From the IMG/VR virus record IMGVR_UViG_3300033075_000275, positions 1 to 64,000 of that record: a stretch of 64,000 nt of DNA. One strand, given 5' to 3'. A program made the position numbers and the translations under genes. The notes under the pieces were generated by a model. It made no database searches. It was not told the DNA's origin and saw only the letters and a list, made by a program, of their open reading frames with translations. Of the stretch, positions 47,225 through 64,000 are shown one piece after another; within the stretch, counting starts at the first letter, position 1; each line of letters starts with the position of its first letter. Source of the stretch: a virus. Lineage: Duplodnaviria; Caudoviricetes.

Positions 47225-47245
47225 GAGTATGATATACATAGATGT

Positions 47246-47869: not shown

Positions 47870-47908
47870 AGTGTGCTATCCTAGGGGCAGGACTCTTGGA
47901 GGAAGTTA

Positions 47909-49978: not shown

Positions 49979-50003
49979 ATAGAAAACGAAGAACGTAGAG
50001 ACG

Positions 50004-50207: not shown

Positions 50208-50208
50208 T

Positions 50209-50343: not shown

Positions 50344-50558
50344 TGTATACCGTAGTATCAAAGCGGGATGAGAACGGACATTGGGAGACAGTAATACGTA
50401 ATAGCCATGGTAAGGAAGTATGGCGGGAGACGATGGATCGTGGCCTACACCCTGCTATAGCATATGACGATCCAAGCCAGGCAGAAGTAGCACAACACTA
50501 TGCAATAAGAAACTTCAAGGCTCTAGGCGAATACGAAAAATGGGACATGTTTAGGTGA
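50343..50558 (+). CDS. hypothetical protein
   Basis: Translationally coupled ORF. Confidence 0.5.
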   Translation: MYTVVSKRDENGHWETVIRNSHGKEVWRETMDRGLHPAIAYDDPSQAEVAQHYAIRNFKALGEYEKWDMFR

Positions 50559-50827
50559 CACGTAACAAACTGCGTGCCGCCAAGTGGCACGCGATAGGCC
50601 AGCACAAAATAGCGCGCGGCTGCGAAGCAGCCGACTGTCCACTACCCGAAGGGTTCGATTTTCGGGCGGTGGACTTGGATTTTGACCATCTACATGATAA
50701 GCGTATGAATGTATCCAATATGATACGCAGCGACTACGGCTGGGCGGCGGTGCTTGAAGAAATAGCCAAGTGTAGAGTATTATGCAAGATATGCCATGCC
50801 AGGCATAGCGCGCGTCAGCGTGCATAG
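50555..50827 (+). CDS. small HNH-like Zn-binding endonuclease
   Basis: C...C..LDFDHL..K...S......EEIAKCRVLCKICH. Confidence 0.75.
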   Translation: MTRNKLRAAKWHAIGQHKIARGCEAADCPLPEGFDFRAVDLDFDHLHDKRMNVSNMIRSDYGWAAVLEEIAKCRVLCKICHARHSARQRA

Positions 50828-50840
50828 TCCAGCACAAATC

Positions 50841-50887
50841 CCCGATTTTTATTAATTTTGAGTATTTTCCCGATTTTTATTAATTTT
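50841..50887. repeat. AT-rich 19-bp direct repeat (x2)
   Basis: CCCGATTTTTATTAATTTT at 50841 and 50869. Confidence 0.85.
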
Positions 50888-51143
50888 CAGATATGTATGA
50901 TCCCGGTTCGGGCGCTTGGAAACGAACTTTTCGGTAGTGCGCCCATTTCCCTTGTGCCACAGGCACTTTCGGGCCTCGGATTCCCTTGTGCCGCAACGAT
51001 TTTCGGGCACGGTCACCGTGAGTTGATCCTAGATCACAGAGAGTCACTCATACTTTCGGATGATGCCCACTCATACTTTCGGTGGTTGTGGTCTGTCGGA
51101 CCTAGGGCATACCCTGGCAGTAGATAGAGAGAGGGGACAGGAC

Positions 51144-51383
51144 ATGAGCACTCTGACCACAATGGTAGCGGGAGCAAGCATTCCCGCCGCCGGAACACAA
51201 TGCGATTGGGCGCAGCACGAATACTGCCCTTGCTGCCGGTGCGAGGATGACGCGGTTGTTACTCAGCACTTTCGCACTGTCCTGACCGACTCCTACGGCA
51301 AGGTTCTGCGCGTGTCAGAATACACCGAATCATGGTGCGCGTCGCACGTTCACACTACGTCCGTCGTCACAATCGAAATCTAG
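51144..51383 (+). CDS. Cys-rich hypothetical protein
   Basis: GAGAGGGG RBS; CPCCRC motif. Confidence 0.55.
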   Translation: MSTLTTMVAGASIPAAGTQCDWAQHEYCPCCRCEDDAVVTQHFRTVLTDSYGKVLRVSEYTESWCASHVHTTSVVTIEI

Positions 51384-51395
51384 AGAGGCAAGGCA

Positions 51396-51626
51396 ATGCA
51401 CATTCTGCACAATCAGACATTCTCCGCACAGGAGAGCAGCGCCATTCGATTCATCGAATACAACGCGCGCACCTACACAATGTTGGTCGAAATGCGAAAA
51501 GGTCAGTGCTACACCGTTTCGCGCGTGCGGTACTCGGACTACGTTTCCATCATCGAGGCATACTCCATTGGCAAGGCGTGGAATGCGTTTCGCATGACGC
51601 CGGGCATCATCATCGAAAAGGCGTGA
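51396..51626 (+). CDS. KTSC domain protein
   Basis: ESSAIRFIEYN....MLVEMRKGQCY..SRV...Y.....A.SIGKAWN. Confidence 0.7.
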   Translation: MHILHNQTFSAQESSAIRFIEYNARTYTMLVEMRKGQCYTVSRVRYSDYVSIIEAYSIGKAWNAFRMTPGIIIEKA

Positions 51627-51630
51627 GACA

Positions 51631-51787
51631 AATGGCCCTCGCAATTATCGCATTGTTCGCCTCCCTCGTCCTGCTGGCAATCGCCATTGTCCTGCACATT
51701 CGGGATGAAATCGCATTCCGTCGGTCGATTGAGGCAATCGCGTTTCACTCGATCATGAACTACTACGGCACCCACCGTATCTACTGA
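51631..51787 (+). CDS. single-TM small protein
   Basis: MALAIIALFASLVLLAIAIVL.. Confidence 0.5.
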
Positions 51788-51799
51788 AAGGGAAAAGCA

Positions 51800-51934
51800 A
51801 TGCTGACCATGACGCCGGAACTGCACAGTGCGGCCATTGCTCACTGTGCAATGTTCGGAATGGAAATGTGCGATTTGGACGCTACCGATTGGGAAATCAT
51901 TTCCGCAGACGTGGATTTCGGAAAGGGTGAGTGA
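51800..51934 (+). CDS. hypothetical 44-aa protein
   Basis: AAAGGGA RBS; MLTMTPELHSAAIAHCAMFG.. Confidence 0.45.
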   Translation: MLTMTPELHSAAIAHCAMFGMEMCDLDATDWEIISADVDFGKGE

Positions 51935-51935
51935 A

Positions 51936-52160
51936 ATGGCAAGGGTTTCATGGCACAGGGACGCAAACGAAATGCGCGTTTCGGTTGACCGTGGCGCAGG
52001 AACAGCATTCCCGCTCGCAATCAATGGATATCCGTTTGAGGGGACGGCGGCATTTATCAATGCGTTTGTTTCGCCTGCCGGATACCTTTTCGCAACGTAC
52101 ATGGATTCCATTGGCAATATGGCGCAATTGCGCGCCGGATTCGTTTCCCGCTCACTCTAG
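51936..52160 (+). CDS. hypothetical protein
   Basis: Follows previous stop by 1 nt; MARVSWHRD.. Confidence 0.5.
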   Translation: MARVSWHRDANEMRVSVDRGAGTAFPLAINGYPFEGTAAFINAFVSPAGYLFATYMDSIGNMAQLRAGFVSRSL

Positions 52161-52172
52161 AAAGGTAGAACA

Positions 52173-52253
52173 ATGGATTTCCCCGACCCCATGGCCGTAA
52201 TGGCATGGTTCGCATTTTGGTTTATCCTTTTGCGGTTTATGGGTGATGACTAA
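52173..52253 (+). CDS. 26-aa TM peptide
   Basis: AAAGGT RBS; MDFPDPMAVMAWFAFWFILLRFMGDD. Confidence 0.45.
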   Translation: MDFPDPMAVMAWFAFWFILLRFMGDD

Positions 52254-52279
52254 AGTCTGGGACTAAGGTCCCGACTTTC
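52254..52279 (+). terminator. probable terminator hairpin
   Basis: AAAGTC(T)GGGAC-TAAG-GTCCC-GACTTT. Confidence 0.55.
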
Positions 52280-52291
52280 TGTTAGCTGAAT

Positions 52292-52454
52292 CTTAACCCT
52301 CCCTTAGCCTCGGCTTAGGGGAGGGTTTCTTAGCTTAATCTTAACCCCTTCTTAGCTTGGTCTTAGCTAAATCAACACGCCCGCAATCTTAGCTAAACCT
52401 TAACCACCCCTTAGCTTGCTCTTAACCGCGCGCCCGCCTTAGCTTAATCTTAAC
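52292..52454. repeat. CTTA(A/G)C hexamer array with 11-bp period
   Basis: 13 copies starting 52292, 52303, 52314 (CTTAGG), 52329, 52340, 52351, 52362, 52388, 52399, 52410, 52421, 52438, 52449. Confidence 0.9.
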
Positions 52455-52648
52455 CTTCTGTTTACGACATATTAAGAAAGCGCCGGAAAGTCCTGTGGCA
52501 CAGACACTTTCGAGGTCGTGAAAACCCTTGTGGCAGAGGCACTTTCGGCGTTGAGGCCCCAAAACCCTTGTGCCACAACGGAATCCGAGCATAGACGTGT
52601 ATCTATGCGTTCCCGACGCACTGTAACCTATTTAGCTCGTTCTTAACC

Positions 52649-52714
52649 TGTGACGCAAGTCACACTGGGAAGGGGCCTCTAGGGCTTGTGTGTGTCGGAC
52701 CCTAGGTGTACCTT
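52649..52714 (+). promoter_or_regulatory. perfect CRP-type box plus promoter
   Basis: TGTGA-cgcaag-TCACA at 52649-52664; TTGTGT-17-TACCTT starting 52686. Confidence 0.65.
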
Positions 52715-52738
52715 GTAAGTAGAGAGAAAGGGAAGATC

Positions 52739-52885
52739 ATGGGACACATGAACGTAGTTGAGAACCTTCGGCCTCTGCCCGAGCGGGTCGGTTGCGCCGT
52801 TGTGTGGCCGGATTTCGGAAAGCACGAAACGTACACTCCGGGTTGTTTCGAGTGCTTCATTGCAAATGGTGGAGGAAACGACTAA
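52739..52885 (+). CDS. hypothetical 48-aa protein
   Basis: AAAGGGA RBS after promoter; CFEC. Confidence 0.5.
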   Translation: MGHMNVVENLRPLPERVGCAVVWPDFGKHETYTPGCFECFIANGGGND

Positions 52886-53079
52886 TGTCAAAGGTGTTTA
52901 GCCCCCGATTCCGTGGCCCAAAGACCACGGTTAGCCACTACGCGGGTAATGGCGCGCATACTCCCACTCAGCACAATTGGGTTAGGCTTTCCCCCAATTC
53001 CCGGTCTCTGCGCAAGGTTGACTTTTGCGCGGAATGCCGTGCCAAAAGAATCACGACCACTTACCCCGGGGGGTACTGA
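52885..53079 (+). CDS. hypothetical Zn-finger-like protein
   Basis: TAATG overlap; HNW..FCAECR. Confidence 0.5.
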   Translation: MSKVFSPRFRGPKTTVSHYAGNGAHTPTQHNWVRLSPNSRSLRKVDFCAECRAKRITTTYPGGY

Positions 53080-53081
53080 TA

Positions 53082-53234
53082 ATGTGGTGGTTCCCGATTA
53101 GCAATGGCACTACCGTAACGGTGTGCAATGAATGCGCTAAGCATGGATCATTTGCGGAGCGGATTGACGGCGATCATTTCCTCGCGTGGCACGATAAGTG
53201 CTGCGTTTGCGGCGAAACGTTCACCGATATCTGA
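53082..53234 (+). CDS. small Cys-rich protein
   Basis: CNEC..CCVCG. Confidence 0.45.
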   Translation: MWWFPISNGTTVTVCNECAKHGSFAERIDGDHFLAWHDKCCVCGETFTDI

Positions 53235-53245
53235 AATGTGATAAA

Positions 53246-53305
53246 ATGATTCTGTGGATCGTATTTCTTTTGTTTGTCGCAACAATCCTGTTTTGGAGGC
53301 CATAA
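53246..53305 (+). CDS. 19-aa TM micropeptide ending WRP
   Basis: MILWIVFLLFVATILFWRP. Confidence 0.4.
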   Translation: MILWIVFLLFVATILFWRP

Positions 53306-53412
53306 TGGTGCTTTTCGCCGGGCGCAATGAGTGCGATCACCTTTTCGCACACATGACCATTTCCATGCATTTCGTTTGCGTGCATTGCGGAAGGGTTATC
53401 ACAACTAAATAG
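53305..53412 (+). CDS. 35-aa Zn-finger-like peptide
   Basis: TAATG overlap; ECDH..CVHCG. Confidence 0.4.
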   Translation: MVLFAGRNECDHLFAHMTISMHFVCVHCGRVITTK

Positions 53413-53413
53413 G

Positions 53414-53459
53414 CAAAATTAGGCAAATTTCCGAATTTTGGCAAATTTGCCTAATTTTG
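53414..53459. repeat. perfect 17-bp inverted repeat
   Basis: CAAAATTAGGCAAATTT-12 nt-AAATTTGCCTAATTTTG. Confidence 0.85.
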
Positions 53460-53470
53460 TGCAAATTTTT

Positions 53471-53537
53471 CTTAACTAAAATTTAACTGTCTCTTAACCT
53501 GGCCTTAACCGGGCGCCCGCCTTAACCCTTTCTTAAC
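53471..53537. repeat. second 11-bp-phased CTTAAC array
   Basis: 53471, 53482 (TTTAAC), 53493, 53504, 53521, 53532. Confidence 0.85.
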
Positions 53538-53787
53538 GTTACGATAACCTTTAAGAAGCGCCTGAAAATCCCTCTGGCACAACGACTTTCGACCCTCCAA
53601 AGCCCTTGCAGCACAGGCACTTTCAGCCACGATACTGAAAATCCTTGTGGCACAGGCGTTTTCGACATATCGATCTGAATGAATATAGCTGAGCGTAATA
53701 GGCCTAAAGTCCTATCAAAGTAGGGACCTATGGGTCTATACCGTGTCGGACCCATGGTGTAGCCTAGAGGCGAGAGAGAGGGAAGAA

Positions 53788-53976
53788 ATGACCAAGCCCA
53801 TTGCCTACGCCGTCCGCCCCTGGACCCACCGTTGCCCTACGGGCACGGGTCACGTCGATGGGCCGATCCGTTGGGAGCGGAGGATCGGTAAGCAGTGGAT
53901 CGGTGACCAGACGTGCCGTAACTGCGACGCTACTCAGCGCGTCATCGAGTACGCCGCTCACGCGCGCAACCGCTGA
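53788..53976 (+). CDS. hypothetical protein
   Basis: GAGGGA RBS; CRNC. Confidence 0.55.
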   Translation: MTKPIAYAVRPWTHRCPTGTGHVDGPIRWERRIGKQWIGDQTCRNCDATQRVIEYAAHARNR

Positions 53977-53988
53977 AAGGGAACTGAA

Positions 53989-54240
53989 ATGACCGCATAC
54001 GCCCCGCCTTGCCACCCAGTCACTAACGGAATGGCGCAGGCCGATATCGACAAACTGCTTTACTCCGAATTGCCCTCAAAGGTCGAGCGGGTAAAGCGCG
54101 AATGGTGCGCCAATTGCGCCATTGTTAGCGAATGCCACGCTCAGGGCTTTTGGGTCAACGAGGATAACAAGCGCATTGCCCTTCCCGGTATTTTCGGTGG
54201 AATGACCGAAAAGGAGCGAAAGGCTCTGGTGCGCGCGTGA
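53989..54240 (+). CDS. whiB: WhiB-like transcription factor
   Basis: Four Cys (C8, CANC, EC) and GIFGGMTEKER turn motif. Confidence 0.85.
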   Translation: MTAYAPPCHPVTNGMAQADIDKLLYSELPSKVERVKREWCANCAIVSECHAQGFWVNEDNKRIALPGIFGGMTEKERKALVRA

Positions 54241-54395
54241 TTACCGTTCCGCGTGAAATGGTATGGATTATCGGCATCCTGGCGTTTATCGCCATTTTCC
54301 TTTTCGGCCGGGTTTCGTATGAATACGGAATTATCGAGGGAAAGTGTATTGCCACGGGTGGAATACTAAATGCAAAGGAGGAATGCGTACATTAA
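54237..54395 (+). CDS. 52-aa single-TM protein
   Basis: GTGA overlap; hydrophobic N-half. Confidence 0.5.
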   Translation: MITVPREMVWIIGILAFIAIFLFGRVSYEYGIIEGKCIATGGILNAKEECVH

Positions 54396-54419
54396 CTGAA
54401 TCTTAACCTCGTCTTAACC

Positions 54420-54524
54420 GGGCGCCCGCGCGAGCGCGGGCTGTCAACCCCCTTACGATGTGATGTAGAACACGCTCAACTTTTCGGATATGGGCTTGTC
54501 TGTGTCGGACCATTCTGCTAGAGT
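54420..54524 (+). promoter_or_regulatory. composite repeat/promoter, copy 1
   Basis: GGGCG-CCCGCGCGAGCGCGGG-CTGTCAA..TTACGA-TGTGA-N6-ACAC..TTGTCT-17-TAGAGT. Confidence 0.85.
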
Positions 54525-54553
54525 TGTACCACGACCTAGGGAAAGGAACCATC

Positions 54554-54751
54554 ATGGATGACTACGCTGACTTCGCGGACTTCGCAGCGGAGGACTACTT
54601 CGATGACTACCCCGGCGACTTCGACGCCGAGCAGGACGACTGGTTCCCCGAGGACGACGACGCGCCCGAGCAGGACTGGCCCGAGGACGACGCGGAGCGG
54701 GACGCCTTCTACGCCGAGGCGTGGGCCGACAGTTATCCCGATTGGGGCTGA
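54554..54751 (+). CDS. extremely acidic 65-aa protein (DNA-mimic candidate)
   Basis: 27 of 65 residues D/E, one Arg, no Lys, 15 aromatics; AAAGGA RBS. Confidence 0.65.
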   Translation: MDDYADFADFAAEDYFDDYPGDFDAEQDDWFPEDDDAPEQDWPEDDAERDAFYAEAWADSYPDWG

Positions 54752-54758
54752 CCCTAGC

Positions 54759-54874
54759 CCGACTACTCTCCGTAGTCGGCGGGCGCCCGCGCGAGCGCGG
54801 GCTGTCAAGCCCTTACGATGTGATCTACCTCACCCCTGAAAACACTAGACCTAGGCAGATTTTTCCGATAGCCT
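54759..54874 (+). promoter_or_regulatory. composite repeat/promoter, copy 2
   Basis: CCGACTAC-TCTCC-GTAGTCGG; core at 54781; TAGACC-17-TAGCCT. Confidence 0.88.
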
Positions 54875-54907
54875 AGGGGCACAAGGTAAACGACCTAGGG
54901 AGTCAAG

Positions 54908-55270
54908 ATGGTTGACGTCACATTCACCGACCACGCCTACCGAAAGTTGGGTGGTGACGTCGATCTGGCCAAGCGTGTCGTGCTGGCAGCGAAGGCTCCC
55001 ACAGTGACCTACCCCAACGGTCGCTTCCCTGGCCAGGTCCGTTGCATCCGTGACGGCATGGTCGCCGTCGTCGCTGGCACTCGTATCGTGACGTTCTATG
55101 CGAATATCGTGGAGACGGACATTCGCCCGGACCAGACTGACGATGACGCCAAGGCGTATCAGGCGAAGCGTAACGCCGAGCGCGCGAAGCGCGACCGGAA
55201 GCGCCAGCAGAAGCGCGACGCTGACCGCGCTTTCACCGCTGCACAGAAGGCCGGAAAGGGGCGCAAGTGA
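54908..55270 (+). CDS. hypothetical protein, possible DUF4258/RelE-like fold with basic tail
   Basis: TFTDHAYRK..TVTYP..R..VAVV..IVTFY. Confidence 0.55.
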   Translation: MVDVTFTDHAYRKLGGDVDLAKRVVLAAKAPTVTYPNGRFPGQVRCIRDGMVAVVAGTRIVTFYANIVETDIRPDQTDDDAKAYQAKRNAERAKRDRKRQQKRDADRAFTAAQKAGKGRK

Positions 55271-55479
55271 CTACTCACGACAAGATCGTTGATCTTGCTA
55301 CTAAGATCGCGCGATACAGGCTGAATAACCCCTCCCAAAGGGCGGGGCAGGCATTCATGAATGTTCTTTCGGCAGAATATCCCGATCTGCATTCCGCAGT
55401 TTTTATCAGCGGTGTCGATCCATTCTACAATGACGGCTTGCTCTCCGCCGCTTGGGGCATTGTTTCGCAGAATATCTAA
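55267..55479 (+). CDS. hypothetical protein
   Basis: QRAGQAFMNVL....PDL...I...DPFY; GTGA overlap. Confidence 0.6.
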   Translation: MTTHDKIVDLATKIARYRLNNPSQRAGQAFMNVLSAEYPDLHSAVFISGVDPFYNDGLLSAAWGIVSQNI

Positions 55480-55489
55480 CAGCAATACC

Positions 55490-55603
55490 GCGATTACTCT
55501 CCGTAATCGCGGGCGCCCGGCCCAGGCCGGGCTGTCAAGTCCTTACGATGTGATGTATGTCACGCCTAAAAGTGTAGACAGACTGGCGCTCATGGTGTAA
55601 CCT
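55490..55603 (+). promoter_or_regulatory. composite repeat/promoter, copy 3
   Basis: GCGATTAC-TCTCC-GTAATCGC; core 55511; TGTGA-tgtatg-TCAC; TAGACA-17-TAACCT. Confidence 0.9.
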
Positions 55604-55622
55604 GACAGTAGGAGGTAAGGAA

Positions 55623-55898
55623 ATGATCTTGGGTATCGACCGAATCGAGCGCCGGGCCGCAGTGAATCTGCCCGCAACGTGCAACCTTTTCGGTGATTGT
55701 GGTCTGATTTTCAGTGTCGAGGTTTTCGTGCATTCCGTAAATGGTGACGTGTGGGAGGTAGAAATCCGCGATTTGCAGAGTGGGGTTTCGATTTACTCTC
55801 CGCCTGACAAGGAATGGAATTTGCTCGTACCGGAAACAATGGCCGAGGCCGAGCCTTACCTTTACCTCCACCTGTGGACGATTGGAATGATTGACTAA
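55623..55898 (+). CDS. hypothetical protein
   Basis: AGGAGG RBS after promoter. Confidence 0.6.
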   Translation: MILGIDRIERRAAVNLPATCNLFGDCGLIFSVEVFVHSVNGDVWEVEIRDLQSGVSIYSPPDKEWNLLVPETMAEAEPYLYLHLWTIGMID

Positions 55899-56185
55899 TG
55901 GGATACAAATTCACCGCGCATGGTAATTGGATGACCATGCACTTTGACGCGCCGCTGACAAGCGCGGGCGTTGTCAACGTTGGCGGTTACTGGTGGAATT
56001 CCCTTCGGGCCGACCCTTACCGGGCCGCTGCCAAATTCGCCAATGAGCGTACCCCATTCCGTAATGACCCTAATTGCCCTACGGCAATGGAATTCTGGGC
56101 CGGGGTTACCGATGATGACCTTGCCGAATTCGACAAGCGTAATCAGGAATTGTCTGATAATGTTGCTAAGTGGGGTTCTGAGTAA
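55898..56185 (+). CDS. hypothetical protein
   Basis: TAATG overlap. Confidence 0.6.
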   Translation: MGYKFTAHGNWMTMHFDAPLTSAGVVNVGGYWWNSLRADPYRAAAKFANERTPFRNDPNCPTAMEFWAGVTDDDLAEFDKRNQELSDNVAKWGSE

Positions 56186-56195
56186 TTCCAGGCCC

Positions 56196-56309
56196 GTGAT
56201 TACTCTCCGTAATCGCGGGCGCCCGGCCCAGGCCGGGCTGTCAAGTAGTTACGATGTGACATAGGACACCCCTGAAAATATTGACACAGAGACTCGCAGG
56301 GTGTAGTCT
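56196..56309 (+). promoter_or_regulatory. composite repeat/promoter, copy 4
   Basis: Core 56217; TGTGA-N6-ACAC; TTGACA-17-TAGTCT. Confidence 0.9.
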
Positions 56310-56315
56310 AAAGAC

Positions 56316-56480
56316 ACAACAGAACAGAGGATGACAGCAGGAGCGGGCTAGACCGAGGGATTTAGTCACCCCCATGAAAGCCCACTACTCCCCAAGGGTG
56401 GACGCCGGATTGACGATCACAACTCCCAGGGACATAGGGGAAAGTCGAACCCGCTTCTGCCGTGATCTTCTGTTCGGACA
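56316..56480 (+). ncRNA. candidate structured ncRNA (about 160 nt) closed by a ~26-bp terminal helix
   Basis: 56322-56347 pairs with 56450-56475; bounded by two promoters; no credible ORF. Confidence 0.65.
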
Positions 56481-56482
56481 AC

Positions 56483-56511
56483 TTGACAAGTCAATAGCGT
56501 GGCGATATACT
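56483..56511 (+). promoter_or_regulatory. promoter for tRNA cluster 2
   Basis: TTGACA-17-TATACT. Confidence 0.85.
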
Positions 56512-56557
56512 AGTCTCCTACCGGGGCGCATCCAAAGGGACCGGCCCGGTAGTGTAT

Positions 56558-56635
56558 GCCATGGGCGCTGGGACGCATACGAGTCTGTAAAACTTGTCTC
56601 ATATGGGTAGCAAGGTTCGATTCCTTGACATGGCA
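56558..56635 (+). tRNA. tRNA-Tyr(GTA)
   Basis: CGAGT-CTGTAAA-ACTTG; long variable arm; CAAGG-TTCGATT-CCTTG; ends approximate. Confidence 0.8.
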
Positions 56636-56639
56636 CAAA

Positions 56640-56699
56640 TCAAGGGTAATCCGGCTCGACGGCGACGGCTGTTGTGGTGTTCGAATCACCTCCCTTGAT
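56640..56699 (+). ncRNA. tRNA-like element lacking a normal anticodon arm
   Basis: TCAAGGG/CCCTTGA acceptor stem, T8-A9, GGTG-TTCGAAT-CACC T arm; only 26 nt in between. Confidence 0.55.
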
Positions 56700-56702
56700 T
56701 AT

Positions 56703-56777
56703 GGCCCCATCGTCTAATGGCTAGGATTGCGCCCTTTCAAGGCGCAGGAAGGGGATCGAAACCCCTTGGGGCTACCA
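56703..56777 (+). tRNA. tRNA-Glu(TTC)
   Basis: GCGCC-CTTTCAA-GGCGC; encoded CCA. Confidence 0.92.
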
Positions 56778-56803
56778 GATTAGGAATATGGTATACTAAT
56801 CAT

Positions 56804-57100
56804 ATGGCATATTCTGATATCGAAAAAAGAAATGAATGGTTTCGCAAACGCTATCAAGATAATCTTGAGTTTGTTCAAAACTATAAAATGAAAATCGGAT
56901 GTTCTGACTGTGGATGGAATGAGCATCACGCGGGGTTAGAATTTGATCACGTAAATCCTCATGTGCGCGGAACAGTTTCGTCACAATTAGGAAAGTCAAG
57001 AAGAGTTATACTAGAAGAAATATCTGCTTGTGAGGTAGTTTGTTCTAGGTGTCATTCACTTAGAACATGGAACAGAAGAGCCCAGATGGTTCAAGAGTAA
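56804..57100 (+). CDS. small HNH-like endonuclease inside tRNA cluster
   Basis: CSDCG..LEFDHV..EEISACEVVCSRCH; leaderless TGG-TATACT promoter at 56789-56797. Confidence 0.8.
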   Translation: MAYSDIEKRNEWFRKRYQDNLEFVQNYKMKIGCSDCGWNEHHAGLEFDHVNPHVRGTVSSQLGKSRRVILEEISACEVVCSRCHSLRTWNRRAQMVQE

Positions 57101-57129
57101 GATTTCGGGTTCGATTCCCGTTGGGACTA
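57090..57129 (+). pseudogene. 3' half of a second tRNA-Glu(TTC)
   Basis: TTC-AA-GAGTA-AGATT-TCGGG-TTCGATT-CCCGT-TGGGACT-A fits tRNA positions 34-73 exactly; no matching 5' half. Confidence 0.7.
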
Positions 57130-57238
57130 CGTAGCAAAACTATCGGCAAGGCCAGTCGGTAGAAAGGGAGGGCGCTGTAGCGAAAGCAGGCCCTAACAAA
57201 AACCGTCAATGACGGTAACAAAGCCTCCCAAATATAAT

Positions 57239-57312
57239 TCCGGTGTAGTGTAATGGTAACACAAGTGCTTCCAAACCATTTGATAGGGGTTCGATTCCTC
57301 TCACCGGGGCCA
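57239..57312 (+). tRNA. tRNA-Trp(CCA)
   Basis: AGTGC-TTCCAAA-CCATT (one C-C mismatch); G73; encoded CCA. Confidence 0.8.
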
Positions 57313-57313
57313 A

Positions 57314-57385
57314 GCCTCCATAGTGAATGGGTTATCATGCATCCCTGTCAAGGATGCGAAACGGGTCCGAGTCCCGTTGGAGGCG
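57314..57385 (+). tRNA. tRNA-Asp(GTC)
   Basis: CATCC-CTGTCAA-GGATG. Confidence 0.88.
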
Positions 57386-57391
57386 CGTTAA

Positions 57392-57462
57392 TCTCCTATA
57401 GTTCAATGGCAGAACGGATGGCTGTTAACCATCTAATCTAGGTTCGAATCCTGGTGGGAGAG
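57392..57462 (+). tRNA. tRNA-Asn(GTT)
   Basis: GATGG-CTGTTAA-CCATC; CTAGG-TTCGAAT-CCTGG. Confidence 0.92.
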
Positions 57463-57508
57463 CGGGCGAGAGATACCAGGGTTTAAACGTATTCCTCTCC
57501 ACCCCTAA

Positions 57509-57579
57509 GGGGGTATAGTATAATGGCAAAACCGCTGGCTCTTACCCAGCAGATCGGAGTTCGACTCTCCGTGCCCCTA
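57509..57579 (+). tRNA. tRNA-Lys(CTT)
   Basis: GCTGG-CTCTTAC-CCAGC; CGGAG-TTCGACT-CTCCG. Confidence 0.9.
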
Positions 57580-57581
57580 CT

Positions 57582-57692
57582 GTTACCGTGAGTGATCGCG
57601 GGCGCCCGGCCCAGGCCGGGCTGTCAAGTGTTTACGATGTGATCTAGGACACTTCTAAATATCTTGACAGATGACAACTTTTACTATAGCCT
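57582..57692 (+). promoter_or_regulatory. composite repeat/promoter, copy 5
   Basis: Core 57600; TTGACA-17-TAGCCT. Confidence 0.88.
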
Positions 57693-57698
57693 AGTTAC

Positions 57699-57968
57699 AT
57701 GAGCCGCACAGACAAGACCGACCCGTGGTGGACTCAGGGTACATGGGTTCCCGTACACGATCACTCTAGGGGAGCGTGTACTCTCCCTGCCAATCCGCCC
57801 TGTCACCACATCACCACGTCATACCGTCACGGTAAGTGCCACTGGACTAAGCGTTGGGATGAGGTCAAGTGGTCCCGTGACAAGTCGGCTGATCGTGCCG
57901 AGCGGGAATGGCTTACTCGCAAGACCCGCTATCGTCGTAACCGTTTGCAGAACGATGATTGGGATTGA
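57699..57968 (+). CDS. hypothetical Cys/His-rich phage protein, leaderless
   Basis: ATG 6 nt after -10; MSRTDKTDPW.. Confidence 0.65.
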   Translation: MSRTDKTDPWWTQGTWVPVHDHSRGACTLPANPPCHHITTSYRHGKCHWTKRWDEVKWSRDKSADRAEREWLTRKTRYRRNRLQNDDWD

Positions 57969-58078
57969 TTACTCTCAGTAATCACGGGCGCCCGGCCCAG
58001 GCCGGGCTGTCAAGTGTTTACGATGTGACTTAGATCACCTGGAAATATCTAGACCGTCACAGTGAATCGTGGTATAGT
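57966..58078 (+). promoter_or_regulatory. composite repeat/promoter, copy 6
   Basis: Core 57986; TGTGA-cttaga-TCAC; TAGACC-17-TATAGT. Confidence 0.9.
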
Positions 58079-58084
58079 CTAACT

Positions 58085-58231
58085 ATGAGTAGCCGACCGA
58101 ATCCTCGCCGGGCAAGTGAACACCAGCGTATCGTTATTGAGCGCCGTCGATCCAGCGCCGCATCCCCTCATGTCAACCGCGTCCGATATGATCGCAACCG
58201 TTCTAATAGGGAATGGAAGCGTGATGCCTGA
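58085..58231 (+). CDS. 48-aa Arg-rich protein, leaderless
   Basis: MSSRPNPRRASEHQRIVIERRRSSAASPHVNRVRYDRNRSNREWKRDA. Confidence 0.6.
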   Translation: MSSRPNPRRASEHQRIVIERRRSSAASPHVNRVRYDRNRSNREWKRDA

Positions 58232-58392
58232 CTCTATAAATCCAATGCATGAACCGCCACACGCGCACGGTATTGCTCTCAGCCCCGCCGATGTGAGGCA
58301 ACTAGAGGCAGCGCTAGACGCGCCTCCTGCCGTGATCGAATCGTTACGCAAACTTCTTGACACCCCCCCCCTCAATCTGATAGGGTACTCGT

Positions 58393-59100
58393 ATGGCACT
58401 CACCCGATCCAAGGACCGCAAGGTTACTAACGCTGTTTCGCCTAATGGAAAGACGGCAGTAATTGCTAATTCATTCGGCCTTCCTGCCGGAAAGGCATTT
58501 AGTTGCCCCGGCGCTACCCCATTCTGCGAGCGTATTTGCTACGCTGGCAAATTGGAAAAGGTTTACAAGGGTGTGCGTAATGTCCTTATGTCCAACTGGA
58601 ATCAATTGCAGAATGTCACGTTTTCGGAAATGGTCGAATTGCTCGACCGTATGATTACCGATTTCGAGGCGGAATGCGATAAGCGCGGGGCCGATAAGGC
58701 ATTCCGTATCCATTGGGATGGGGATTTCTTTAGCAACGATTACACTATCGCATGGCGCGAGGTTATCAACCTTCACCCCGATACTCATTTCTGGGTTTAC
58801 ACGCGGGTAAAGGATGCGGCAATGATGCTGCACAATGCCAACCTTTCTAACCTTTCGCTTTACTTTAGCGCCGACCGCGACAATATCTACAATGCCCGGT
58901 TGCTTTCTAGCGTCGGTATCAACGTTGCATATGTCGATGACACTTTCGCACAGGGTAAGGCAGAATTTCCGAAGGCTGCCCGGTGCCCTGAGAATAACAA
59001 GGCTATCCCCCTCATTTCCACTAAGGGTAGCGCGTGCATTGTTTGCGGCCTTTGCGTGAATGGTCGGAATGACGTGCTGTTTGCGGTGAAAAAGCGATGA
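58393..59100 (+). CDS. mycobacteriophage gp88-like protein
   Basis: RSKDRKV..NSFGLPAG..SCPGAT..C..ICYAGKLE..FRIHWDGDFFS; promoter TTGACA-18-TAGGGT at 58357-58386. Confidence 0.8.
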   Translation: MALTRSKDRKVTNAVSPNGKTAVIANSFGLPAGKAFSCPGATPFCERICYAGKLEKVYKGVRNVLMSNWNQLQNVTFSEMVELLDRMITDFEAECDKRGADKAFRIHWDGDFFSNDYTIAWREVINLHPDTHFWVYTRVKDAAMMLHNANLSNLSLYFSADRDNIYNARLLSSVGINVAYVDDTFAQGKAEFPKAARCPENNKAIPLISTKGSACIVCGLCVNGRNDVLFAVKKR

Positions 59101-59171
59101 ATAGTTTTGTCACCTTTCTAGTTATCCTGGGAATTGCATTCTTTTGGATGGTCTATTGGAAACCACGCTAA
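59097..59171 (+). CDS. 24-aa TM micropeptide ending WKPR
   Basis: ATGA overlap; MNSFVTFLVILGIAFFWMVYWKPR. Confidence 0.5.
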   Translation: MNSFVTFLVILGIAFFWMVYWKPR

Positions 59172-59179
59172 GTAACCCC

Positions 59180-59293
59180 GCCGTCACTCTCTGTGACGGC
59201 GGGCGCCCGGCCCAGGCCGGGCTGTCAACCCCTTACGATGTGACGTGGATCACCCATAAAACTATAGACTCCCGACCCCTGATCATGTATGCT
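59180..59293 (+). promoter_or_regulatory. composite repeat/promoter, copy 7
   Basis: GCCGTCAC-TCTCT-GTGACGGC; core 59201; TGTGA-cgtgga-TCAC; TAGACT-17-TATGCT. Confidence 0.9.
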
Positions 59294-59324
59294 TGCATCA
59301 TCACCTAGAGAAAGAGGTAATACA

Positions 59325-59456
59325 ATGGCTCTGTCCGTTCTCATCGCCGCCGAGGTTTGGAATCGTAAGGACGGCGCGGTTGTCAAGTCCGTCGTTCGTA
59401 CCGAGGATGGCCGATTCGTCGGCGTGACCAACCAGACGCGGGAGGTCAAGGCATGA
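59325..59456 (+). CDS. hypothetical 43-aa protein
   Basis: GAGGT RBS; MALSVLIAAEVWNRKDG.. Confidence 0.55.
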   Translation: MALSVLIAAEVWNRKDGAVVKSVVRTEDGRFVGVTNQTREVKA

Positions 59457-59668
59457 GCGAGAAGTACGCTCTTGACGTAATGCCGGGGGACATTCTCGAT
59501 CTTGACGAGCGTGGCCCCGTGCTGGTCGATTACGTTTTCCAACCTAGCGATGACTACTCCGCCGTTGTCATTAGCGGTTATGACCCCGATGGTGATGAAT
59601 TCGATGAGGAATTCGACCCCGATGACGTGCTGACCGTTCGTCATAACCTCGCCTATCTTTGGGACTGA
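59453..59668 (+). CDS. acidic hypothetical protein
   Basis: ATGA overlap. Confidence 0.55.
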   Translation: MSEKYALDVMPGDILDLDERGPVLVDYVFQPSDDYSAVVISGYDPDGDEFDEEFDPDDVLTVRHNLAYLWD

Positions 59669-59669
59669 T

Positions 59670-59858
59670 ATGCCTACCCCGTTCGAAATCCTGTTCCCCG
59701 CCGAGGCGGCAATGCGTGATATGCGTATCTGCCCGCTCTGCCAGGTTGCCATCAACCCCGGCGATTTCCGCGATGCTATTTCGCTGCGAGAGTCAGAGAT
59801 TAGCGGCATGTGCCAGACGTGCCAGGACAACTTTTTCACCGATGGAGACGAGTGGTAA
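59670..59858 (+). CDS. small Zn-finger protein
   Basis: CPLC..FRDAISLRESEISGMCQTCQD. Confidence 0.65.
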   Translation: MPTPFEILFPAEAAMRDMRICPLCQVAINPGDFRDAISLRESEISGMCQTCQDNFFTDGDEW

Positions 59859-60079
59859 TGACCATTCTGTGTGGTAAGACCCGTCCGCAAGCCGACCCGT
59901 ATGAGATTTGGGTCGATGGTGACTGGACGTGGCTGGTGCTGAAAAAGTATCAGAACGACGACCGCAAGCCTTATGCACGCTGGCTTTGTGCGGTAAAGTC
60001 CCCGTTCACCTTCGGTTCGTATGAGGTTGGCGACGTGTATGCTGCCGAGGTCATGGATTCTGCGGAGCGGGTTCTCTAA
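59858..60079 (+). CDS. hypothetical phage protein
   Basis: TAATG overlap; CGKTR..PYEIW..WTWLVLKKYQ..YARWLCAVKSP. Confidence 0.6.
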   Translation: MTILCGKTRPQADPYEIWVDGDWTWLVLKKYQNDDRKPYARWLCAVKSPFTFGSYEVGDVYAAEVMDSAERVL

Positions 60080-60252
60080 TGGATAGGCAATGGCGTCGGA
60101 CATTCTTTCTGTCCCTCGCCATTTGCTTTATCCTATTCAGTGTGTTTCGTGCCGTTCTACTGGTCTATATTGCTGAGCAGGAAAAGGTGACGGGCGAACC
60201 TAACTACAATTGTACAATTTGTACAACTGTCCCCCCTGATTACTCTCCGTAA
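60079..60252 (+). CDS. 57-aa single-TM protein
   Basis: TAATG overlap; stop lies within repeat copy 8. Confidence 0.45.
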   Translation: MDRQWRRTFFLSLAICFILFSVFRAVLLVYIAEQEKVTGEPNYNCTICTTVPPDYSP

Positions 60253-60350
60253 TCACGGGCGCCCGGCCTAGGCCGGGCTGTCAAGTCTTTTACGATATGA
60301 CATAGAGCACGCCTAAAACTATAGACTGTCACTCTGCCACATGCTATTCT
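60238..60350 (+). promoter_or_regulatory. composite repeat/promoter, copy 8
   Basis: Core 60257 with perfect CCCGGCCTAGGCCGGG; TAGACT-17-TATTCT. Confidence 0.9.
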
Positions 60351-60378
60351 TGACCTACCAACCGAGAAAGGAACCCAA

Positions 60379-60609
60379 ATGTCATCATCCCCCGGAGTGT
60401 TCATCGTCAAGGACGGTCGGCCCTTCATCGACGTTCTCACCGTTACCGAAAACATGTGCCAGTTCGCGGTGAATATGCTTCGATCCAACAACGCCCCCGT
60501 TCCCCGCGAGATGCTTGAGTTTTTCGGTGAGGCTGCGACGATGCGGGCGGAATACATCATTGTAGAGGCCGACCTCGCCATGCTCGACCCCGATACTGTG
60601 ATCGTCTGA
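60379..60609 (+). CDS. hypothetical protein
   Basis: AAAGGA RBS. Confidence 0.6.
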   Translation: MSSSPGVFIVKDGRPFIDVLTVTENMCQFAVNMLRSNNAPVPREMLEFFGEAATMRAEYIIVEADLAMLDPDTVIV

Positions 60610-60616
60610 GGAGAGC

Positions 60617-60880
60617 ATGATGACTGATATTCCCGAGGGTGTAATCGGATCATACAAGGTCACCCTTCTAGTAGATCGGAAGCCTTGGATGCTCGACCCG
60701 GCTGATTGGGATTGGGAGGCTCTGTGTGGTCCCGATACCAAGGTTGTCGATTGCCACCTCGTAGGGGTTCGACTGGATGATGATGAGTTATATGCCCGGC
60801 TGGATGAAACCCGCCAGACTTGCGGTCAGCCAGACAATTGTGGCGACTGCGACCACACTTCTGGGAATGGAAATCTGTGA
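60617..60880 (+). CDS. hypothetical protein with C-terminal Cys cluster
   Basis: GAGGAG RBS; CG..DNCGDCD. Confidence 0.55.
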   Translation: MMTDIPEGVIGSYKVTLLVDRKPWMLDPADWDWEALCGPDTKVVDCHLVGVRLDDDELYARLDETRQTCGQPDNCGDCDHTSGNGNL

Positions 60881-61371
60881 ACAGTAACAAGACTCAGATT
60901 CATCGCAAGCGTATATCACGCCCTATGCTATGGCTTGTGAATAACGTGCGAGTGTTTGAGAATGCACGTGTGCTTCATTTCGGTGAGGGCCGCGCGTTTC
61001 TCGACACCCAGGCCCTTATTGATGAGGGAGCATATGTAACTGCGTATGACCCTTATTCCCCCGCGCCTGCTCAGCGTGACGATGTTGTCATCTACAACTA
61101 CTACGACTATGTAATTGCAGTCTACGTATTTAACGCTCTGGAACCGGGAGAGCGCATTCAGGCCTACTCCGATTTCATTACCGCCAAGATGGGTGGAGTC
61201 GGATACATTGCCTTGCGTACTGACAAAATCGCCGGGGTACCCTATGAGGATGGCGTCATTACCCAAAAGTATACCTTTCAGAAGTCTTACACCCCCGAGT
61301 CAGCGGTCGAGGAATTCGGCGGCAAGGTAATTCACAAGGGTTCCGGCTTTCTCATTCTGGAGATTTCATAA
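60877..61371 (+). CDS. SAM-dependent methyltransferase-like protein resembling the phosphorothioation-associated MTase domain
   Basis: ISRP..VLHFGEGRAFLD..AYDPY..YVFNAL..ER..DGVITQKYTFQKSYT. Confidence 0.7.
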   Translation: MNSNKTQIHRKRISRPMLWLVNNVRVFENARVLHFGEGRAFLDTQALIDEGAYVTAYDPYSPAPAQRDDVVIYNYYDYVIAVYVFNALEPGERIQAYSDFITAKMGGVGYIALRTDKIAGVPYEDGVITQKYTFQKSYTPESAVEEFGGKVIHKGSGFLILEIS

Positions 61372-61390
61372 CTAACGACGATCTTATCCG

Positions 61391-61500
61391 GTCCATTCTG
61401 GACGGCGGGCGCCCGCGCCAGCGCGGGCTGTCAAGTCTTTTACGATAAGTTAAATATTTCCCCTAAAAACCTTGACATCCACCCTGGCAGCATGTAGAAT
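61391..61500 (+). promoter_or_regulatory. composite repeat/promoter, copy 9
   Basis: Core 61407 with CCCGCGC-CA-GCGCGGG; TTGACA-17-TAGAAT. Confidence 0.88.
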
Positions 61501-61506
61501 GACCCC

Positions 61507-61575
61507 ATGGACCTACTATTGATGATCTTGTTAGGTGTGACCCTCGTCATACTCGCAGTCACTTGGAAGCCCTAG
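61507..61575 (+). CDS. 22-aa TM micropeptide ending WKP, leaderless
   Basis: MDLLLMILLGVTLVILAVTWKP; ATG 6 nt after -10. Confidence 0.55.
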   Translation: MDLLLMILLGVTLVILAVTWKP

Positions 61576-61632
61576 ACATAGCCGCCCGAATCTGCTAGAC
61601 TTGCATCACAAGCCAATCAAGGAAGGAACAAC

Positions 61633-62640
61633 ATGCCTGCTGCTGTCGAAACCTCCGGTCGCCTCGCGGCCTTTGCTTCCCGTGAGGTGCCCGCGTGGCA
61701 CGCGCTGGGAACTGTCTTTGAGGGTAACCTCAACACTCAGGAAATGCTCGCTCTCGCTCACCTGAATGGATGGAACGTTCGGCTCGTCCCGTTTGAGGCT
61801 GTCCTCGACTTCGACACCTATGCCAAGCCGCAGTTTCTCGTCGTCCGCGATAACCCGTTCGGTGACGGCCAGGGCGTTCTCGGCACGGTCGGCTCCCGCT
61901 ACAATGTCGTGCAGAACGAACAACTGTTCGACTTCGGTGACCTCATCCTCGATGGTGGTGGCCGCTGGGAGACTGCCGGGTCCATCAAGGGCGGAACCCA
62001 GGTGTTCGGCTCTCTCGCCTTCGATGAAAAGACCATCACGCTCGACCCCGATGGTCGCTCTGACGAGGTAAAGACGTTCCTCCTGGTCGTGACCGGCCAC
62101 GACGGCTCATGTGCCGTTACTGCTATCGTGACTCCTGTTCGTGTCGTGTGCGCGAACACGCTGGCCGTTGCCCTCGGTGGGGCCAAGTCTAAGTTCACGA
62201 TTCGTCACACTTCCACGGTCGATGGCAAGATCGCTGCCGCTCGTAAGGCGCTCGGTGTGACCTTCGGTTACATGGACGCTTTCCAGGCAGAGGCTCAGGC
62301 CATGATCGAGAAGGAAATCACTAAGGCCACCTTCGATGACCTTGTGACCTCTCTCTACCCGATGCCCGAGAAGGACGCCAAGGGATCGGTGAAGAAGTGG
62401 ACGACCAAGATCGACCAGATCGAGGCAATTTATCTCGGTCAGGCTGACGGTCCCGACACGACCTCCGCCATTCGCGGAACGGTTTGGGGCGCGTACAATG
62501 CCCTTACCGAAAATCTGGACTGGTACGGTAAGATTCGGGCGGGTAACGTCGAATCCCTTACCCTTGGTGCTGCTGGTCTGGATATCGCTAAGGCTGCTGA
62601 GAAGGAGCGGATTCACTCCCGCGTCCTGGCTCTGCTCTGA
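61633..62640 (+). CDS. DUF932 / TIGR03299-type phage-plasmid protein
   Basis: PAWHALG..VVQNEQLFDF..WETAGSIKGG..HDGS..TPVRVVCANTL..IRHT..GTVWGAYNALTE. Confidence 0.88.
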   Translation: MPAAVETSGRLAAFASREVPAWHALGTVFEGNLNTQEMLALAHLNGWNVRLVPFEAVLDFDTYAKPQFLVVRDNPFGDGQGVLGTVGSRYNVVQNEQLFDFGDLILDGGGRWETAGSIKGGTQVFGSLAFDEKTITLDPDGRSDEVKTFLLVVTGHDGSCAVTAIVTPVRVVCANTLAVALGGAKSKFTIRHTSTVDGKIAAARKALGVTFGYMDAFQAEAQAMIEKEITKATFDDLVTSLYPMPEKDAKGSVKKWTTKIDQIEAIYLGQADGPDTTSAIRGTVWGAYNALTENLDWYGKIRAGNVESLTLGAAGLDIAKAAEKERIHSRVLALL

Positions 62641-62709
62641 CATTCCATCCTGGGCATGATGTAAAACTGCCTCCACACTTTGTACCATTCAGCATCCACA
62701 TAATGTACC

Positions 62710-62835
62710 GCGATTACTGAGAGTAATTGCGGGCGCCCGGCCTAGGCCGGGCTGTCAAGTCCTATTACGATAGATTACGAAAATCACTGAAATTCGCAGA
62801 AAATCCTTGACACGCTGGCCTGTAGGGTGTACCCT
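62710..62835 (+). promoter_or_regulatory. composite repeat/promoter, copy 10
   Basis: GCGATTAC-TGAGA-GTAATTGC; core 62731; TTGACA-17-TACCCT. Confidence 0.88.
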
Positions 62836-62876
62836 AGGGGTAGTCAATGAGATGAAACCGACGGACTACAAGAAGG

Positions 62877-63107
62877 ATGGCTGACTGTATGACATTTCGT
62901 ATTGACACCGCTAAGTTTGGTGACATGCTGCCCAACGGAGCCACCTTCATCGGTAGCCGGTGCAGGGCTAAGGGCGAGTGGATCGTCCTTGCCAACTATC
63001 GGGGAGAGTTTGTAACCTGGGCTTCTACCGTCAACGGTGAAACTTTTTGGGGTAGGTACTTCCAAACCCACATCGTTGACGCCGTTTCCGATTTTCAGAC
63101 GCGGTAA
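62877..63107 (+). CDS. hypothetical protein
   Basis: GAAGG RBS; EFVTW......G.TFWG.YF. Confidence 0.55.
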   Translation: MADCMTFRIDTAKFGDMLPNGATFIGSRCRAKGEWIVLANYRGEFVTWASTVNGETFWGRYFQTHIVDAVSDFQTR

Positions 63108-63209
63108 AGATAGTCCGAAGTGACTAGGCCAAAACCCTAGACAACCCCCCACCAAGCGTGTATCATAGTACACATAAGAGCAAGACCCACCACCATAGTA
63201 GGAGGAACA

Positions 63210-63458
63210 ATGGCCACCACGGTCAAGCCCACCCCGTCCCTCGTCCGCGCGTTCGCTGCGGCTGCCAAGGATCAGGGCCTCGCTCCTGACGACCTGGCTG
63301 TCCACCAGCGCGGCAAGGTTTCCAAGGCGGAGGTCATCTTCTACCTCCACCAGCACCCCGCGACTACGCGCGAACTTGCTACCGGCCTTGGCCTGGAAAT
63401 CGGCAAGCGCGGCGTGATCGCTGAGTCCGTTTTCGCTGCCGTTGCCGACTCTCTCTGA
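63210..63458 (+). CDS. protein with two divergent Lsr2-like DNA-binding motifs
   Basis: VRAFA..QG..V.QRGKVS and TRELATGLGLEIGKRGVIAESV; AGGAGG RBS. Confidence 0.6.
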   Translation: MATTVKPTPSLVRAFAAAAKDQGLAPDDLAVHQRGKVSKAEVIFYLHQHPATTRELATGLGLEIGKRGVIAESVFAAVADSL

Positions 63459-63487
63459 GGGTTGGCACGGCCCAACCCGATTGGAGA

Positions 63488-64000
63488 ATGATGGCAACTA
63501 AGAGAGAGTGGCTAGCGGCTCAGGGCCTAGCAAAGCCCGGCACCCGTGGCCGATTCGGTAAGGCAGCGCATGAGGCTCTAGAGCAGGCAGAAAAGGACGG
63601 CATCGTTTTCGATGACCCGACTCCCAAGCCTGCTAAGGAGGTGGCGACGGAGGGAGCGGAGGCTCCCTCCAAGCCTAGTCGGCCCACGTCTGAGAACGCA
63701 GAAATTAGGGCGTGGGCCAGGGATAACGGATTTACTATCGGTGAGCGCGGCAGAATCTCGGCAGAAATTCTAGCCGCCTACCATGGTGATCCTATTCCAG
63801 ATAATGACTATGTACCACCGCCACCCCAGGTCCGGGTCCGCCCGGCGCGGGTGATGTACGGATTCGACAATGACGGACATAAGATCGGGTTTGCTACCTG
63901 TGGACGATGCGCAGAACACATCTCGTACTGCGAGTGTTCAGAGGGAATCAAGACACCTTTCGGCGTGAACGCTATTGACGAGTCCCTTACGGAGTGGTAC
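63488..64000 (+). CDS. lsr2: Lsr2-like DNA-binding protein, runs off window
   Basis: AEIRAWARDNGFTIGERGRISAEILAAY canonical Lsr2 C-domain plus N-terminal KREWLAAQG..TRGRF; frame open to 64000. Confidence 0.8.
   Translation, partial: MMATKREWLAAQGLAKPGTRGRFGKAAHEALEQAEKDGIVFDDPTPKPAKEVATEGAEAPSKPSRPTSENAEIRAWARDNGFTIGERGRISAEILAAYHGDPIPDNDYVPPPPQVRVRPARVMYGFDNDGHKIGFATCGRCAEHISYCECSEGIKTPFGVNAIDESLTEWY

Follow-up and report, generated by a model that had tools for sequence, protein, structure and literature searches.

CRP/GlxR-type dyads in helical phase with the promoters of a small-gene block in an uncultured tailed phage and its relatives

The DNA analyzed here, referred to as the window, is the first 64,000 nucleotides (64 kb) of IMG/VR record IMGVR_UViG_3300033075_000275 (Duplodnaviria; Caudoviricetes), which comprises 79,872 bp with 48% G+C and has an estimated completeness of 63%. 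The element in question is a palindromic box that precedes promoters in a + strand block of very small genes at 52.7 to 64.6 kb, and it was examined in this record (G000) along with related uncultured records (G001, G002, and G004 to G008). The block includes a gp88-family protein, a DUF932 protein, an Lsr2-like protein, and six tRNA genes, and it probably represents early genes. The major capsid protein of this phage shows 62% identity to those of the large Streptomyces BE/BK-cluster phages (Stanwilliamsviridae) and 44% to the homologue of Rhodococcus phage Trina, and a megablast search against GenBank phages found no near relative. Given the capsid identity to Streptomyces phages and a gene for a WhiB-like factor in the block, the host was placed in Actinobacteria.

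Promoters of the block belong to an intergenic cassette, ten copies of which were confirmed in the window. Its elements follow one another in a set order: a variable hairpin, a G+C-rich hairpin, GGGCTGTCAAG, 3 to 5 nt, the invariant TTACGA(T), a 16-bp slot, a CCTrAAA A-tract, and a promoter composed of a -35 hexamer (T[T/A]GACN), 17 nt, and a -10 hexamer (TAnnnT). Most cassette genes have no known function. Two of the boxes precede another type of promoter, with the motif tGTCgg(N10)tA(N3)T of the DNA-damage activator PafBC (PMC8635444). The features are as follows.

52649..52664, + strand: perfect 16-bp CRP-type palindrome TGTGACGCAAGTCACA without TTACGA; box start 60 bp before the -10, centre at about -64.5
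52693..52714, + strand: PafBC-type promoter TGTCGG-N10-TACCTT, downstream of the 52649 box
53989-54240, + strand: gene for the WhiB-like factor
54453..54474, + strand: copy 1, TTACGA and TGTGATGTAGAACACG; box start 60 bp before the -10, centre at -64.5
54503..54524, + strand: PafBC-type promoter of copy 1, TGTCGG-N10-TAGAGT
54813..54874, + strand: copy 2, TTACGA and TGTGATCTACCTCACC, A-tract, -35 TAGACC (54846), -10 TAGCCT (54869); centre at -54.5
55543..55603, + strand: copy 3, TTACGA and TGTGATGTATGTCACG, A-tract, -35 TAGACA (55575), -10 TAACCT (55598); centre at -53.5
56249..56309, + strand: copy 4, TTACGA and TGTGACATAGGACACC, -35 TTGACA (56281), -10 TAGTCT (56304); followed by a non-coding stretch and the six tRNA genes
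57632..57692, + strand: copy 5, TTACGA and TGTGATCTAGGACACT, -35 TTGACA (57664), -10 TAGCCT (57687); ATG at 57699
58018..58078, + strand: copy 6, TTACGA and TGTGACTTAGATCACC, -35 TAGACC (58050), -10 TATAGT (58073); ATG at 58085
59233..59293, + strand: copy 7, TTACGA and TGTGACGTGGATCACC, -35 TAGACT (59265), -10 TATGCT (59288)
60290..60350, + strand: copy 8, TTACGA and a weakened box, TATGACATAGAGCACG, -35 TAGACT (60322), -10 TATTCT (60345)
61440..61500, + strand: copy 9, TTACGA without a box (TAAGTTAAATATTTCC), -35 TTGACA (61472), -10 TAGAAT (61495); ATG at 61507
62765..62835, + strand: copy 10, two TTACGA (62765 and 62775) without a box, -35 TTGACA (62807), -10 TACCCT (62830)

Directly 3′ of TTACGA, the slot reads TGTGA-N6-TCAC in copies 2, 3, 6, and 7 (54819, 55549, 58024, and 59239), TGTGA-N6-ACAC in copies 1, 4, and 5 (54459, 56255, and 57638), and TATGA-N6-GCAC in copy 8 (60296), while it is degenerate in copies 9 and 10. 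These calls agree with the initial annotation of this DNA, as does the perfect TGTGAcgcaagTCACA at 52649. The distance from the box start to the start of the -35 is 26 bp in copies 3 to 9 and 27 bp in copy 2, again as described before. An extra helical turn had also been assigned to copies 1 and 10 and to the 52649 site; the distances themselves are right (37, 36, and 37 bp, respectively), and their reading had to be amended. Copy 10 is a boxless duplication, its additional 10 bp being a tandem repeat (TTACGATAGA followed by TTACGAAAAT, 62765-62780) that adds one helical turn and leaves the second TTACGA in the usual 26-bp register to the -35. The 52649 site and copy 1 have a promoter of the different, PafBC-type class (TGTCGG-N10-TAnnnT), so that the "-35" is only nominal there.

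Cassettes 5, 6, and 9 have their ATG exactly 7 nt past the -10, and the remaining cassettes have leaders of 20 to 35 nt with ribosome-binding sites. This spacing suggests that the mRNAs of the three cassettes are leaderless, as is common in Actinobacteria, and it supports the assumed +1 and hence a box centre at -53.5 (-54.5 in copy 2).

Within the window, TGTGA-N6-TCAC occurs nine times versus 0.65 expected, a number reached by none of 100 shuffles. As the cassette copies are paralogues, this count does not constitute independent evidence, and independent support has to come from other phages. Distances were therefore taken from box start to -10 start for boxes with a strong downstream promoter, using a promoter finder blind to phase. 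They fell into five classes, 48 to 51, 58 to 61, 70 to 73, 79 to 81, and 91 to 93 bp, with few outliers, and clustered at 49 to 50, 59 to 61, 70 to 72, 79 to 81, and 91 to 93 bp. The Rayleigh R was 0.69 for 56 sites and 0.62 for the 43 values left after paralogues and orthologues had been collapsed, with a best period of 10.5 to 10.6 bp, and the observed value was matched by 0 of 20,000 random sets, also with paralogues collapsed. The phasing holds alike for sigma-A-type (-35/-10) promoters and for TGTC[A/G]G-N10-TAnnnT promoters. Thus, the fixed helical phase first proposed from the cassettes of this phage is borne out in about 15 phages, independently of its paralogous copies.

A consensus was derived from 34 aligned sites of about 13 phages, in which GTG and CAC are fixed by the selection pattern and only the other columns are informative. 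Position 5 is A in 32 of the 34 sites, position 6 is Y in 31, position 8 is T in 29, position 9 is A in 23, and position 11 is R in 32, and positions 2, 5, and 7 of the N6 spacer vary freely. The result is the symmetric dyad TGTGAYnTAnRwCACA, whose spacer is itself symmetric: Y6 mirrors R11 and T8 mirrors A9, as in the GlxR sequence TGTGANNTANNTCACA and in E. coli TGTGATCTAGATCACA. In the window, eight sites are 16-bp dyads of the TGTGA-N6-TCACA type that marks CRP/GlxR-family sites. Compared with known motifs, the phage box is identical to the consensus of the GlxR regulon of Corynebacterium glutamicum (TGTGANNTANNTCACA; PMC4254451), central TA included. It also contains the consensus of Mycobacterium tuberculosis CRP, CRP-Mt (NGTGNNANNNNNCACA; PMC2844151), and fits the footprint consensus GTG(N)6GNCAC of Streptomyces coelicolor Crp (PMC3520106), the latter being matched exactly by four of the eight window sites. 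In CAP, residues R180, E181, and R185 contact G2 and G4 (PMC10187061); both bases are part of the selection pattern, so their presence in every site carries no independent weight. The free columns reveal a selected symmetric dyad, and the CRP/GlxR type originally ascribed to the motif holds. The host group of the GlxR sites is likewise Actinobacteria, but the host here is probably not Corynebacterium, as the nearest cultured relatives infect Streptomyces and Rhodococcus.

The composite of terminator-like hairpin, TTGTCAAG, TTACGA, box, A-tract, and promoter was found in at least 14 IMG/VR contigs of 35 to 57% G+C, a lower bound, as true relatives had to be sifted by context from the many chance matches of the pattern scan. 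The low-G+C contigs, too, are relatives of the Streptomyces BE phages by DNA similarity. In G001, G004 to G008, and further IMG/VR contigs, promoters are preceded by boxes both with and without TTACGA, and a wider scan of related loci yielded many additional boxes without TTACGA that still precede good promoters, indicating that the box is a module of its own. In Rhodococcus phage Trina, three perfect palindromes (NC_042040 positions 861, 129621, and 131233) were found in intergenic gaps of small-gene arrays without the phage-specific flanks; two of them are exactly 49 bp from box start to -10, matching the phage studied here.

Some boxes stand above PafBC-type core promoters. Exact matches to the PafBC motif lie at 51094-51115, 52693-52714, 53744-53765, and 54503-54524 on the + strand, and the genome has six versus 1.4 expected. 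TGTCGGACC is common to these four promoters, and the short leader downstream of each contains a ribosome-binding site of the GAGAGARGGAAG type. In G001 and other relatives, the majority of cassette promoters belong to the PafBC type. The core motif is the same as that of PafBC-dependent (RecA-NDp) promoters of Actinobacteria, with the difference that two CRP-type boxes stand one extra turn upstream here. To our knowledge, PafBC promoters do not carry CRP sites, and the likeness concerns the core promoter rather than the box. In the 44001-64000 piece of G001, a direct repeat, GGTTGCAGAAYGGTTGCA, is inserted between box and PafBC-type promoter (positions 5490-5510, 6895-6915, and 11020-11040 of the piece) and lengthens the spacing by whole helical turns, to 70 and 81 bp.

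The box centres lie at -53.5/-54.5 and -64.5 in this phage and at about -75, -85, and -96 in its relatives. In E. coli, class I sites are centred at -61.5, -71.5, -81.5, and -91.5 and class II sites at -41.5 (PMC2844151), so the earlier observation that the box is not at a canonical E. coli position stands. The spacing by whole turns that keeps class I sites on the same face as RNA polymerase is nevertheless present, and in M. tuberculosis the activating CRP1 site of whiB1 is centred at -58.5 (PMC2844151). When bound upstream, M. tuberculosis CRP is an activator, and close to the start site it is a repressor; the location of the phage box upstream of the promoter is typical of activation. As in class I promoters of the lac type in E. 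coli and in whiB1, a 16-bp dyad stands upstream of the -35 at positions one turn apart, and the A-rich stretch between box and -35 offers a possible dock for the alpha C-terminal domain. The phage sites differ in that they are on phage DNA, are known from sequence, and in part serve PafBC-type promoters. The arrangement therefore resembles class I activation (upstream, one face, several turns) but fails the E. coli positions. The -51.5 position of E. coli CRP, near the closest class of the phage, has been described as non-activating.

Regulator genes that could account for the boxes were sought in the phage genomes themselves. No HTH_Crp_2 domain above the family cut-off was found in G000, G001, G004, G006, G007, or G008, and no cNMP-binding domain in G000, G001, G004, G007, or G008; three of the records searched for these domains are at least 90% complete. 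The sole weak HTH_Crp_2 match is an HNH-type endonuclease, as judged by eye from its sequence. No Cro/C1-type HTH_3 domain was detected in five box-bearing genomes. A phyletic profile by tblastn for open reading frames present in G000, G001, G004, and G008 and absent in Angela and Blueeyedbeauty contained no regulator-like candidate and returned only an Ig-like protein and the following two genes, each present in the four box-bearing genomes with no tblastn match in Angela or Blueeyedbeauty.

G000 65256-65897, - strand: HslV/proteasome-like peptidase
G000 69850-70344, - strand: pyrimidine-dimer DNA glycosylase

The boxes are putative operator sites for a dimeric regulator of CRP-type specificity, and we give about even credence to the view that their reader is the Crp/GlxR-family dimer of the actinobacterial host, acting as a face-of-helix activator. 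Such proteins have been described in Mycobacterium, Corynebacterium, Gordonia, and Streptomyces (PMC10187061). The host protein would bind the box upstream of the core promoter, on one helix face, and would touch RNA polymerase, presumably through the alpha C-terminal domain and/or sigma region 4, raising transcription; the small, probably early genes would thereby be tied to the cyclic AMP (cAMP) level or growth state of the host. Across the phages, the sequence of the box is preserved despite divergence in hairpins, spacers, promoters, and G+C content, and Trina has it without the phage-specific flanks. Indirectly, this pattern fits a conserved host factor better than a co-evolving phage protein. 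The initial annotation had wired the early programme to a cAMP-sensing host regulator or a phage protein of the same specificity; of this, the phased CRP/GlxR-type dyad stands, and the identity of its reader, the sign of the effect, and any role of cAMP are what we infer from the sequences.

Several findings weigh against a host Crp as the reader. The promoter-proximal half-site is often ACAC instead of TCAC, the phage series is 3 to 4 bp (about 100 to 130 degrees) out of register with E. coli class I, and the commonest position (-53.5) leaves 10 bp, the A-tract, between box and -35. No class II (-41.5) site was present among the strong-promoter sites, in a scan that began 35 bp past the box start and covered the spacing of about 37 bp. 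In the cultured Streptomyces BE phages Angela, Mildred21, Blueeyedbeauty, and Naboo, boxes are no more numerous than background, so the trait is not general to phages of Crp-bearing hosts. In addition, the cassette boxes of this phage are always joined to the asymmetric TTACGA, G000 is about 63% complete, and the tblastn profile would miss phage proteins that are small and evolve fast. It is possible, if rather unlikely, that the reader of the dyad is a dimeric DNA-binding protein that the phage encodes and that has no homology to CRP; it would activate middle promoters or modulate early ones from the phased sites. The non-E. coli register, the confinement of the boxes to one part of the phage family, their junction here to the phage-specific TTGTCAAG and TTACGA, and the many cassette genes without known function all speak for such a protein, and an HTH_17-like protein of 175 to 183 amino acids (homologues of Angela gp69) exists throughout the family. 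That protein was rejected as the box reader, however, as it occurs in box-less phages as well. The domain searches and the phyletic profile also argue against a phage reader, as does the constancy of the box across diverged phages.

That the boxes are read by a different host regulator whose site has a comparable dyad, for instance Rex or a second paralogue of the CRP/FNR family, is quite improbable. Several CRP/FNR-family proteins are frequent in Actinobacteria, and the Rex operator TTGTGAANNNNTTCACAA (PMC5355995) also includes TGTGA-N6-TCACA. Rex (TTGTGAA-N4-TTCACAA) nonetheless needs A at position 6, T at position 11, and a preceding T, whereas the boxes have A6 in 2 of the 34 sites, T11 in none, and a preceding A in 29; moreover, Rex is a repressor, to which phased far-upstream sites are ill-suited. 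We regard as very improbable a dyad without any regulatory role, be it inherited filler of a duplicated cassette or a hairpin of the preceding terminator region. Descent alone could give the paralogous copies of this genome their fixed spacing and sequence. It would not be expected to keep the half-sites fixed while spacer positions vary freely, or to place the dyad in 10.5-bp phase at non-homologous promoters of many phages. Read as a hairpin, the dyad would pair A5 with position 12, which is T in only 14 of the 34 sites with no compensating change, and this lack of covariation points to a protein site.

Extending the host Crp reading to the whole group, we tentatively propose a clade-wide wiring of small-gene (host-takeover) promoters, of both sigma-A and PafBC type, to host Crp from centres at -54 plus whole turns, the clade consisting of the uncultured Stanwilliamsviridae relatives and Trinavirus. 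If so, the cAMP, germination, or growth state of the host would gate infection, perhaps jointly with PafBC, the activator of the DNA-damage response. Were host Crp to read the boxes, lytic actinophages would, throughout a family, have their first genes coupled to a global regulator of the host, with a CRP activation geometry distinct from the E. coli paradigm; were a phage protein to do so, it would be a new regulator mimicking CRP specificity. We found no published account of CRP-type sites in the promoters of actinophages. The idea is directly testable, with Trina in culture and the Crp proteins of Streptomyces, Rhodococcus, and Mycobacterium purifiable.

Among large lytic phages, SPO1 and T5 (pre-early region) have host-takeover modules in their terminal repeats. 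These are likewise arrays in which every very small gene has a strong promoter and a terminator of its own, and we know of no dependence of their promoters on CRP-type upstream sites, in contrast to what is proposed for the present phage. Streptomyces phage Angela has its DUF932 homologue (gp2) at the left genome end, amid a comparable small-gene array, and the terminal repeats of BE1 phages measure about 11 kb (PMC5764925).

TTACGA(T) is an element separate from the box, since many copies of it lack a box; it is also seen in box-less relatives. It is invariant, is preceded by (T)TGTCAAG, and occurs in all cassettes (54453 to 62775) and at 52462, 53539, and G000 64718, 64730, 64778, and 65165. 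Angela and G002 keep it, followed about 15 nt on by a different motif, (T)CACGGGAAT or CCAGGGATTT. TTACGA matched no known regulator motif, and its phyletic spread is that of the family-wide HTH_17-like protein. As the -35 of a second promoter (TTACGA-N18-TAAAAN) it was rejected, because the downstream hexamers have no conserved T6 and are replaced by T-tracts in G001; the cassette A-tract is better read as an UP-like element. A leftward promoter from the reverse TTGACA in GCTGTCAAG was discarded as well, as no -10 follows. The sequence TGTCCG(A/T)TT or its complement, ATCGGACAT, often comes after box and A-tract (loci L028, L046, L066, L074, L082, and L089 of the relatives; G000 64700-64760) and reads TGTCCACA in one contig, where it resembles a DnaA box.

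The six tRNA genes (Tyr, Glu, Trp, Asp, Asn, and Lys) lie at 56554-57580, between cassettes 4 and 5, and the box-bearing promoter of cassette 4 appears to drive a non-coding RNA and not a protein gene. An Rfam search of 52 to 64 kb returned tRNAs only. Between tRNA-Glu and tRNA-Trp there is a 98-amino-acid HNH-like open reading frame (56804-57100), whose match to Pfam HNH is just under the cut-off. Where the + strand block ends, a single incomplete cassette (GGGCGCCCGGCCTCGCCCGGGCTGTCAAGG) lies in the opposite orientation (G000 64660-64690, minus strand), possibly as a bidirectional terminator that is shared. The first three promoter regions have runs of short CTTAGCT/CTTAACC repeats (52282-52475, 53472-53540, and 54392-54428) in place of the first hairpin. 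Direct repeats of 22 to 28 bp (CCTTGTGGCACAGGCACTTTCG type) with a spacing of about 34 bp form iteron-like clusters upstream of the first PafBC-type promoters, at 50947-51008, 52490-52590, and 53570-53670.

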